A stretch of 64,000 nt of DNA, taken from NCBI RefSeq assembly GCF_001677475.2, contig NZ_CP015229.1; one strand, 5' to 3'. This document shows positions 16,755 to 17,764 of the stretch, piece by piece (within the stretch, counting starts at the first letter, position 1; every line of letters begins with the position of its first letter). Below the pieces are notes generated by a model, which saw nothing but the letters and a program-made list of their open reading frames with translations, searched no databases and was not told the DNA's origin. The position numbers and the translations under genes are program-made. Source of the stretch: Escherichia coli (GTDB taxonomy: Bacteria; Pseudomonadota; Gammaproteobacteria; Enterobacterales; Enterobacteriaceae).

Positions 16755-17764
16755 GTGTCAGATCAGATTATCGCCCGCGTCTCGCAATCCCTTGCCAAAG
16801 AACAGTCACTGGAAAGTCTGGTCCGACAGCTTCTGGAGATGCTGGAAATGGTCACTGATATGGAATCAACCTACCTGACCAAAGTGGATGTCGAAGCGCG
16901 CCTGCAGCATATTATGTTTGCCCGTAACAGCCAGAAAATGCACATCCCGGAGAATTTTACCGTCTCGTGGGATTACTCGTTATGCAAACGCGCCATTGAT
17001 GAAAACTGCTTTTTCAGCGATGAAGTCCCTGACCGTTGGGGCGACTGTATTGCGGCACGCAATCTTGGCATCACCACATTTCTGAGCACGCCAATTCACT
17101 TACCGGATGGATCATTCTATGGCACGCTTTGCGCCGCCAGTGGAGTGAACGCGCGGAACAGGTTTTACAGTTATTCGCCGGACTGATTGCACAATATATT
17201 CAAAAAGAGGCGCTGGTAGAACAGCTGCGCGAAGCCAATGCCGCGCTGATAGCGCAATCGTATACCGACTCGTTAACCGGGTTGCCGAATCGGCGGGCGA
17301 TTTTTGAAAATCTGACGACGCTGTTTTCCCTCGCCCGGCATCTTAACCATAAGATAATGATCGCGTTTATCGACCTGGATAACTTCAAATTAATCAACGA
17401 TCGTTTTGGTCATAATAGTGGCGATCTGTTTCTCATTCAGGTTGGCGAGCGCCTTAATACGCTCCAGCAAAATGGCGAAGTTATTGGTCGTCTCGGCGGT
17501 GATGAGTTTTTGGTTGTTTCACTAAACAACGAGAATGCGGATATTTCGTCGCTGCGAGAACGTATTCAACAGAAAATACGTGGAGAATATCACTTAGGTG
17601 ATGTTGATTTGTATTATCCCGGTGCCAGTCTTGGCATAGTAGAAGTCGATCCTGAAACAACCGATGCAGACAGTGCCCTGCATGCTGCCGATATCGCGAT
17701 GTATCAGGAGAAAAAACACAAACAGAAAACACCTTTTGTCGCGCATCCAGCGCTACATTCCTGA
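16755..17764 (+). pseudogene. dgcP: dgcP (yeaP) GAF-GGDEF diguanylate cyclase, disrupted: GAF part and GGDEF part lie in different frames
   Basis: N-terminal fragment from GTG 16755 stops at 17186; GGDEF part (RLGGDEF) continues in ORF 17036..17764; frame switch near 17150. Confidence 0.6.

Follow-up and report, generated by a model that had tools for sequence, protein, structure and literature searches.

The dgcP (yeaP) locus considered here lies in a 64-kb window of Escherichia coli DNA (the whole stretch of 64,000 nucleotides that was analyzed), in which the gene is broken into two overlapping open reading frames (Table 1). A megablast search with positions 16700-17800 matched annotated dgcP in 5,417 of the 5,426 complete E. 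coli genomes, and the gene interval itself is 97 to 98% identical to annotated dgcP across these 5,417 genomes. Between K-12 and the window, 17 of the 1,010 aligned bases differ when the gap described below is excluded, and identity with intact alleles is about 98 to 99% once that gap is set aside. The window is colinear with K-12 from yeaC through yebW. The gene order yoaF-dgcP-yoaK is conserved, and yoaK-yoaJ-yeaQ is found on the far side of dgcP. The dgcP identity assigned by an earlier reading made from the sequence only is borne out by the alignment and by the yoaF/yoaK synteny, which confirm that the interval is the dgcP/yeaP orthologue at its usual locus. Judged by its reading frames, this orthologue is a pseudogene of the dgcP/yeaP family and not a functional member.

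Table 1. Features of the broken dgcP allele, in window coordinates
Feature	Position	Strand	Remarks or basis
dgcP (yeaP) pseudogene	16755..17764	+	1010 nt vs 1026 nt in the intact gene
N-fragment ORF, 143 aa	16755..17186	+	129 native residues, 14 out-of-frame residues (GVNARNRFYSYSPD), then TGA
Longest ORF in the GGDEF frame (-1/+2)	17036..17764	+	Opens with 31 codons of GAF sequence read out of frame
C-fragment ORF, 211 aa, from TTG 17129 (MRRQWSER...)	17129..17764	+	Linker helix and complete GGDEF domain
Surviving CGCCAG copy, the deletion junction	17135..17140	+	Alignments to intact alleles
GGDEF active-site motif codons (GGC GGT GAT GAG TTT), intact	17495..17509	+	Sequence

Other parts of the window also depart from K-12. 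A complete ISEc10-like element of the IS21 family (44674-47082) occupies a site between yobD and mntP. It carries istA (499 aa, 44766-46265) and istB (251 aa, 46262-47017) and has a 7-bp target duplication, GTTGTTT; K-12 represents the empty site, and the element is present between yobD and mntP in none of the complete RefSeq E. coli genomes. Between dmlA and yeaV, 224 nt (22176-22399) are absent from K-12. This insert holds a good ribosome-binding site and an ATG that lead into a 536-aa BCCT transporter (ORF 22272-23882), and K-12 yeaV (481 aa) looks like a 5′-truncated form of the gene in the window. In addition, pncA directly adjoins yeaC (window 3-1011), and several complete genomes are arranged likewise. 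Because the window contains no match to ydjL, the K-12 ydjE-ydjL block is probably missing between these two genes.

The N-terminal frame of the dgcP allele runs from GTG 16755 to a TGA at 17184-17186, and the frame shift comes after codon 129 (Ser129). Because Pfam delimits the GAF domain of intact DgcP to residues 17-155 (and the GGDEF domain to residues 175-330), the frame breaks within GAF, and the N-terminal fragment is left without the C-terminal part of this domain. Native C-terminal sequence returns at R133 in the other frame, from which 209 residues are kept (R133-S341). Consequently, no single polypeptide of approximately 341 aa joins GAF and GGDEF in the window allele. An NCBIfam search detects the GGDEF domain (TIGR00254, E = 2e-37) in the downstream part, where RLGGDEF is encoded at 17489-17509, and yields only a weak GAF-like match in the upstream part. 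These results agree with the sequence-only reading on several points: the N-terminal part stops at 17186, RLGGDEF is present in the other-frame ORF, the Pfam and NCBIfam domains fall in separate frames as expected of a split between GAF and GGDEF, and the coding length of 1007 nt plus a stop gives about 336 codons against 341 in the intact gene, much as had been estimated.

The C-terminal fragment overlaps the N-terminal one by 58 nt. In intact dgcP, the frame opened by TTG 17129 ends at a TGA within the segment that is lost here; once the 16 nt are gone, it continues through the linker helix and the entire GGDEF domain. Gene callers applied to public contigs pick the TTG 17129 ORF, in which Pfam detects GGDEF, whereas the product of the longer ORF 17036-17764 has no exact match in the public protein collection. 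The window allele thereby presents the layout of a degenerate diguanylate cyclase (DGC), with a stop before GGDEF and, close by, an alternative start from which GGDEF can be read intact. A low-confidence, single-sequence AlphaFold model of DgcP (pLDDT 40) predicts a long helix spanning approximately residues 137-173.

Alignment of the window allele to the dgcP genes of K-12 and strain WP4 reveals a single gap of exactly 16 nt and zero further indels, which matches the deletion of about 16 nt that had been proposed and leaves the frame discontinuous relative to K-12. Likewise, the best megablast matches cover 1,117 bases against the 1,101-base query. The intact allele around the lesion reads ...TTTGCGC[CGCCAGCAGTGAGAAG]CGCCAGTGGAG..., or, with the repeats separated out, ...TTTGCGC-CGCCAG-CAGTGAGAAG-CGCCAG-TGGAG.... 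The arrangement CGCCAG(N10)CGCCAG, with copies of the 6-mer 16 nt apart, is present in K-12, WP4, and GE3, and the window has one CGCCAG. Thus, the missing 16 nt equal one copy of the repeat plus the 10-nt spacer. The direct-repeat origin suggested earlier holds, but the 7-nt repeat named then (cgccagt) does not, as the seventh base differs between the copies; the junction also lies somewhat upstream of the proposed position near 17150 (Table 1).

Deletions between short direct repeats through slipped-strand mispairing or microhomology are a classical class of spontaneous deletion in E. coli. Because the footprint consists of one repeat copy and the spacer, we infer that the 16-nt loss arose by slippage between the CGCCAG repeats, in that slipped-strand mispairing or a microhomology-mediated deletion during replication would remove precisely this segment. 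The DNA between the repeats folds no better than shuffled sequence (z of about 0.7), and no hairpin or other slippage-promoting feature was found there. Taken together, it is highly probable that the frameshifted dgcP is a true pseudogene, specific to its lineage, that lost 16 nt between CGCCAG repeats and retains the footprint of slippage or microhomology.

The junction occurs in none of the 5,417 complete RefSeq E. coli genomes. With a 91-nt query that spans it, all the best matches among complete RefSeq E. coli genomes cover 107 nt in two pieces. A 24-mer across the junction has zero matches in GTDB species representatives and zero in JGI metagenome contigs. When three separate segments of the window were compared with the 5,426 complete RefSeq E. 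coli genomes, the closest genome was 98.8 to 99.2% identical and was a different strain for each segment. By these matches, the window comes from an E. coli lineage that is sparsely sampled.

The same deletion is found in public contigs of other E. coli backgrounds. A variant C-terminal fragment (Q for K at one position) is encoded on approximately 17 contigs, designated group B. Representatives of this group (L008-L011) show 157 differences from the window over 11,335 positions. In contrast, they have 0 mismatches over 11.3 kb to the complete genome GE3, whose dgcP is intact, and only the 16 nt are missing. The group B contigs also stop at an IS605-family tnpB adjoining yeaQ, the same as in GE3. 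A third haplotype with the deletion is represented by a metagenome contig (L007, group C); it is separated from the other two (groups A and B) by 20 to 22 SNPs per 1.77 kb and is only a few bases away from genomes with intact dgcP such as FDAARGOS_943. With a coverage of 1.7x, it is the weakest of the three haplotypes.

These observations favor the view that two or more further E. coli backgrounds acquired the identical 16-nt deletion independently, because no SNPs around the junction appear to have been transferred with it. The geometry of the CGCCAG repeats would favor rare, independent repeats of the same event. Alternatively, the deletion could have arisen once and been carried between lineages by homologous recombination. 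E. coli does recombine, and the lesion is base-for-base identical across the three haplotypes. However, the SNPs that distinguish the haplotypes come as close as 39 to 324 nt to the junction, so that only very short recombination tracts could have spread the deletion; those under 190 to 370 nt would be compatible. No donor SNP came along at any of these nearest sites, group B is free of mismatches to GE3 over its entire 11.3 kb, and another dgcP deletion, of 20 nt (see below), is likewise present in two backgrounds, so such events recur. We therefore consider a single origin to be unlikely, and proceed with independent recurrence as the preferred reading.

The consequences for the gene product can be predicted from the frames and their translation signals. 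Translation from the native start shifts frame after Ser129 and ends 14 codons later, yielding a 143-aa GAF fragment. The linker helix and GGDEF would be cut off from the native ribosome-binding site, whose Shine-Dalgarno pairing is -5.9 kcal/mol at a spacing of 6, and probably little or no GGDEF protein would be made. At TTG 17129 the Shine-Dalgarno sequence is weak (-3.1 kcal/mol, spacing 16), and those of TTG 17036, TTG 17282, and ATG 17357 are weaker than this. Because of the premature stop and the poor Shine-Dalgarno sequence available to the downstream fragment, the window dgcP is most likely a null allele that has lost its function. A terminator-like stem-loop followed by a T-run is also present within the GGDEF-coding region (17282-17306, + strand); it is probably a chance match to the consensus.

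A strain with this allele would lose the contribution of DgcP to the c-di-GMP pool. DgcP is a vegetatively expressed DGC that is relatively abundant or strongly expressed (PMC5635695). Deletion of yeaP from strain CFT073 results in less biofilm on glycerol, and the heterologous DGC WspR restores biofilm formation (PMC3484386). From these reports, we infer that the phenotype of the window allele would be a modest loss of c-di-GMP input.

A different outcome is conceivable, wherein the 211-aa fragment initiated at TTG 17129 acts as a sensor-less, unregulated cyclase, such that regulation is changed and activity is kept. The deletion removes the TGA that otherwise closes the TTG 17129 frame and thereby fuses this frame to a complete GGDEF domain, and the cut comes after the GAF core and before the helix predicted by the low-confidence model. 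Moreover, Shigella dgcE, dgcQ, and dgcN, which have stops before GGDEF, still raise c-di-GMP (PMC11327459), although these data come mostly from plasmid overexpression. Initiation in the window allele would depend on a TTG whose anti-Shine-Dalgarno pairing is roughly half as strong as that of the native start and much farther away, no promoter-like site was found inside dgcP, and ribosomes translating the N-terminal ORF pass over TTG 17129. In addition, GGDEF domains need dimerization, which the sensor domain normally provides. Therefore, we judge an active split enzyme to be improbable.

By analogy with such systems, it might also be proposed that dgcP is repeatedly inactivated or rewired under selection, and that the deletion, having arisen at least three times, makes a linker-GGDEF cyclase that is constitutive or differently regulated. 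We regard this proposal as quite improbable. Programmed recoding, in which a -1 shift in the 17036-17186 overlap would give near-full-length DgcP, is exceedingly improbable: both frames are open over 150 nt, but neither an X XXY YYZ heptamer nor a homopolymer of at least 6 nt occurs in the overlap, positions 16000-23000 have no Rfam match, and the two-frame layout is in 0 of 5,417 complete genomes and so is not conserved. Loss of function remains the reading that we prefer.

Many apparent frameshifts in draft genomes turn out to be errors, and this general prior is the only point in favor of an artefact in which 16 nt truly present in the genome were lost during assembly or sequencing. The window is 100% identical to the Logan assembly of SRA run ERR3309125 across 20,636 nt including the deletion, and the NCBI draft GCA_018682815.1 carries the same allele with 2 mismatches (99.99% identity over 20.6 kb). 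Overall, the window-type allele is present on approximately 18 contigs from independent assemblies, and exact look-ups in public data return both the 143-aa and the 211-aa products. The identical junction emerges from Logan, NCBI submitter, and ENA metagenome pipelines, on approximately 35 contigs and three haplotypes. Among about 60 K-12 orthologues in the window (yeaC through yebW, each aligned), dgcP alone is gapped or broken, and the neighboring c-di-GMP genes cdgI, dgcJ, and pdeD are intact. A loss of 16 nt at a 6-nt repeat is also unlike a homopolymer-type error, and 6 nt should be far below the k-mer sizes used by assemblers. With this evidence, the probability of an artefact is negligible.

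Both alternatives offered by the sequence-only reading are affected by these data. Its assembly error is contradicted by the approximately 18 independently assembled contigs. The same lesion, which it proposed to look for in related isolates, is present in these contigs of the window haplotype. Its “strain-specific pseudogene” is correct as to the pseudogene but too narrow as to the strain, given that the allele occurs in a small lineage and the deletion in other E. coli backgrounds.

Because the lesion is absent from complete E. coli genomes, an origin of the window in Shigella was also considered. This candidate was rejected, as the 64 kb contain one IS element (the ISEc10-like copy), the other genes are all intact, and the dgcP gene of S. 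flexneri is reported to be intact. More generally, the finding that dgcP is the sole broken gene of about 60 excludes both an assembly prone to errors and a genome in Shigella-like decay.

There are numerous other ways in which dgcP can be, and has been, broken. The gene has roughly twenty pairs of short direct repeats whose members are within 60 nt of each other. As a control, deletions were simulated at the other repeat pairs that would produce a frameshift, and the products were looked up in the protein collection, where several of them are present. Three alleles are confirmed at the DNA level: L017 has lost 16 nt between GCTGCGC repeats, L019 and L020, from two different backgrounds, have lost 20 nt between TACCGA repeats, and L015 and L016 carry an E165* nonsense mutation. 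An IS1 insertion in dgcP is found in one complete genome (RS571). The collection also includes a 148-aa product that fits a 35-nt deletion between CGCTGG repeats, which is a match at the protein level only. Clustered at 90% identity, N-terminal DgcP fragments form a group of 512, some of which are just cut by contig ends. The lesion in the window is the most upstream of the dgcP null alleles noted here and the sole one within the GAF core.

We had entertained the possibility that the CGCCAG site is a special hotspot, and this idea is weakened by the control look-ups, in which other repeat-mediated dgcP deletions are similarly frequent. Because other natural deletions of this type are confirmed in DNA, the window lesion is one case of a common process and not a unique hotspot. 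The CGCCAG deletion may be seen as one among many routes by which a dispensable dgcP breaks.

In E. coli and Shigella, genes for GGDEF and EAL proteins are known to rank among the accessory regulators that mutate more often, and the window lesion fits this pattern. It is an ordinary, repeat-mediated frameshift in a gene class known to be mutated often, and the only addition is its recurrence in unrelated backgrounds, which makes it one more clean case of a single microhomology deletion that has occurred repeatedly in E. coli lineages unrelated to each other. For annotation purposes, the locus should be recorded as a genuine dgcP pseudogene rather than as two genes or as an assembly error. Carriers are probably without one vegetatively expressed source of c-di-GMP, and their biofilm behavior may shift slightly.

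Comparisons with known systems place the window allele among familiar types of lesion. Intact DgcP of E. coli K-12 (YeaP, b1794), a GAF-GGDEF diguanylate cyclase, shares with it the locus, the synteny, the promoter-proximal start, and the GGDEF motif. However, the K-12 protein has GAF and GGDEF in one chain, whereas the window allele splits them after codon 129. As with other slippage deletions at short repeats, one copy and the spacer are gone, here from 6-nt repeats 16 nt apart, and the event is recurrent; the window case is not unusual for this class, and a stimulating structure was not found. The natural deletions L017, L019, and L020 affect the same gene by the same repeat-mediated mechanism at different positions. 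The E165* alleles and the IS1 insertion also inactivate this gene, and their positions differ from that of the window lesion.

The degenerate DGC genes of S. flexneri (PMC11327459) offer another parallel. Similar to the window allele, dgcE, dgcQ, dgcN, and dgcM have a stop upstream of an intact GGDEF domain, and alternative frames start close to the lesion. The lesions in S. flexneri, a host-restricted pathogen rich in pseudogenes, have been described as nonsense mutations, whereas the window has a frameshift deletion among intact neighbors. Furthermore, dgcE, dgcQ, and dgcN of S. flexneri, with their stops before GGDEF and their nearby alternative frames, still raised c-di-GMP (PMC11327459), whereas any activity of the window fragment is a prediction drawn from this analogy.
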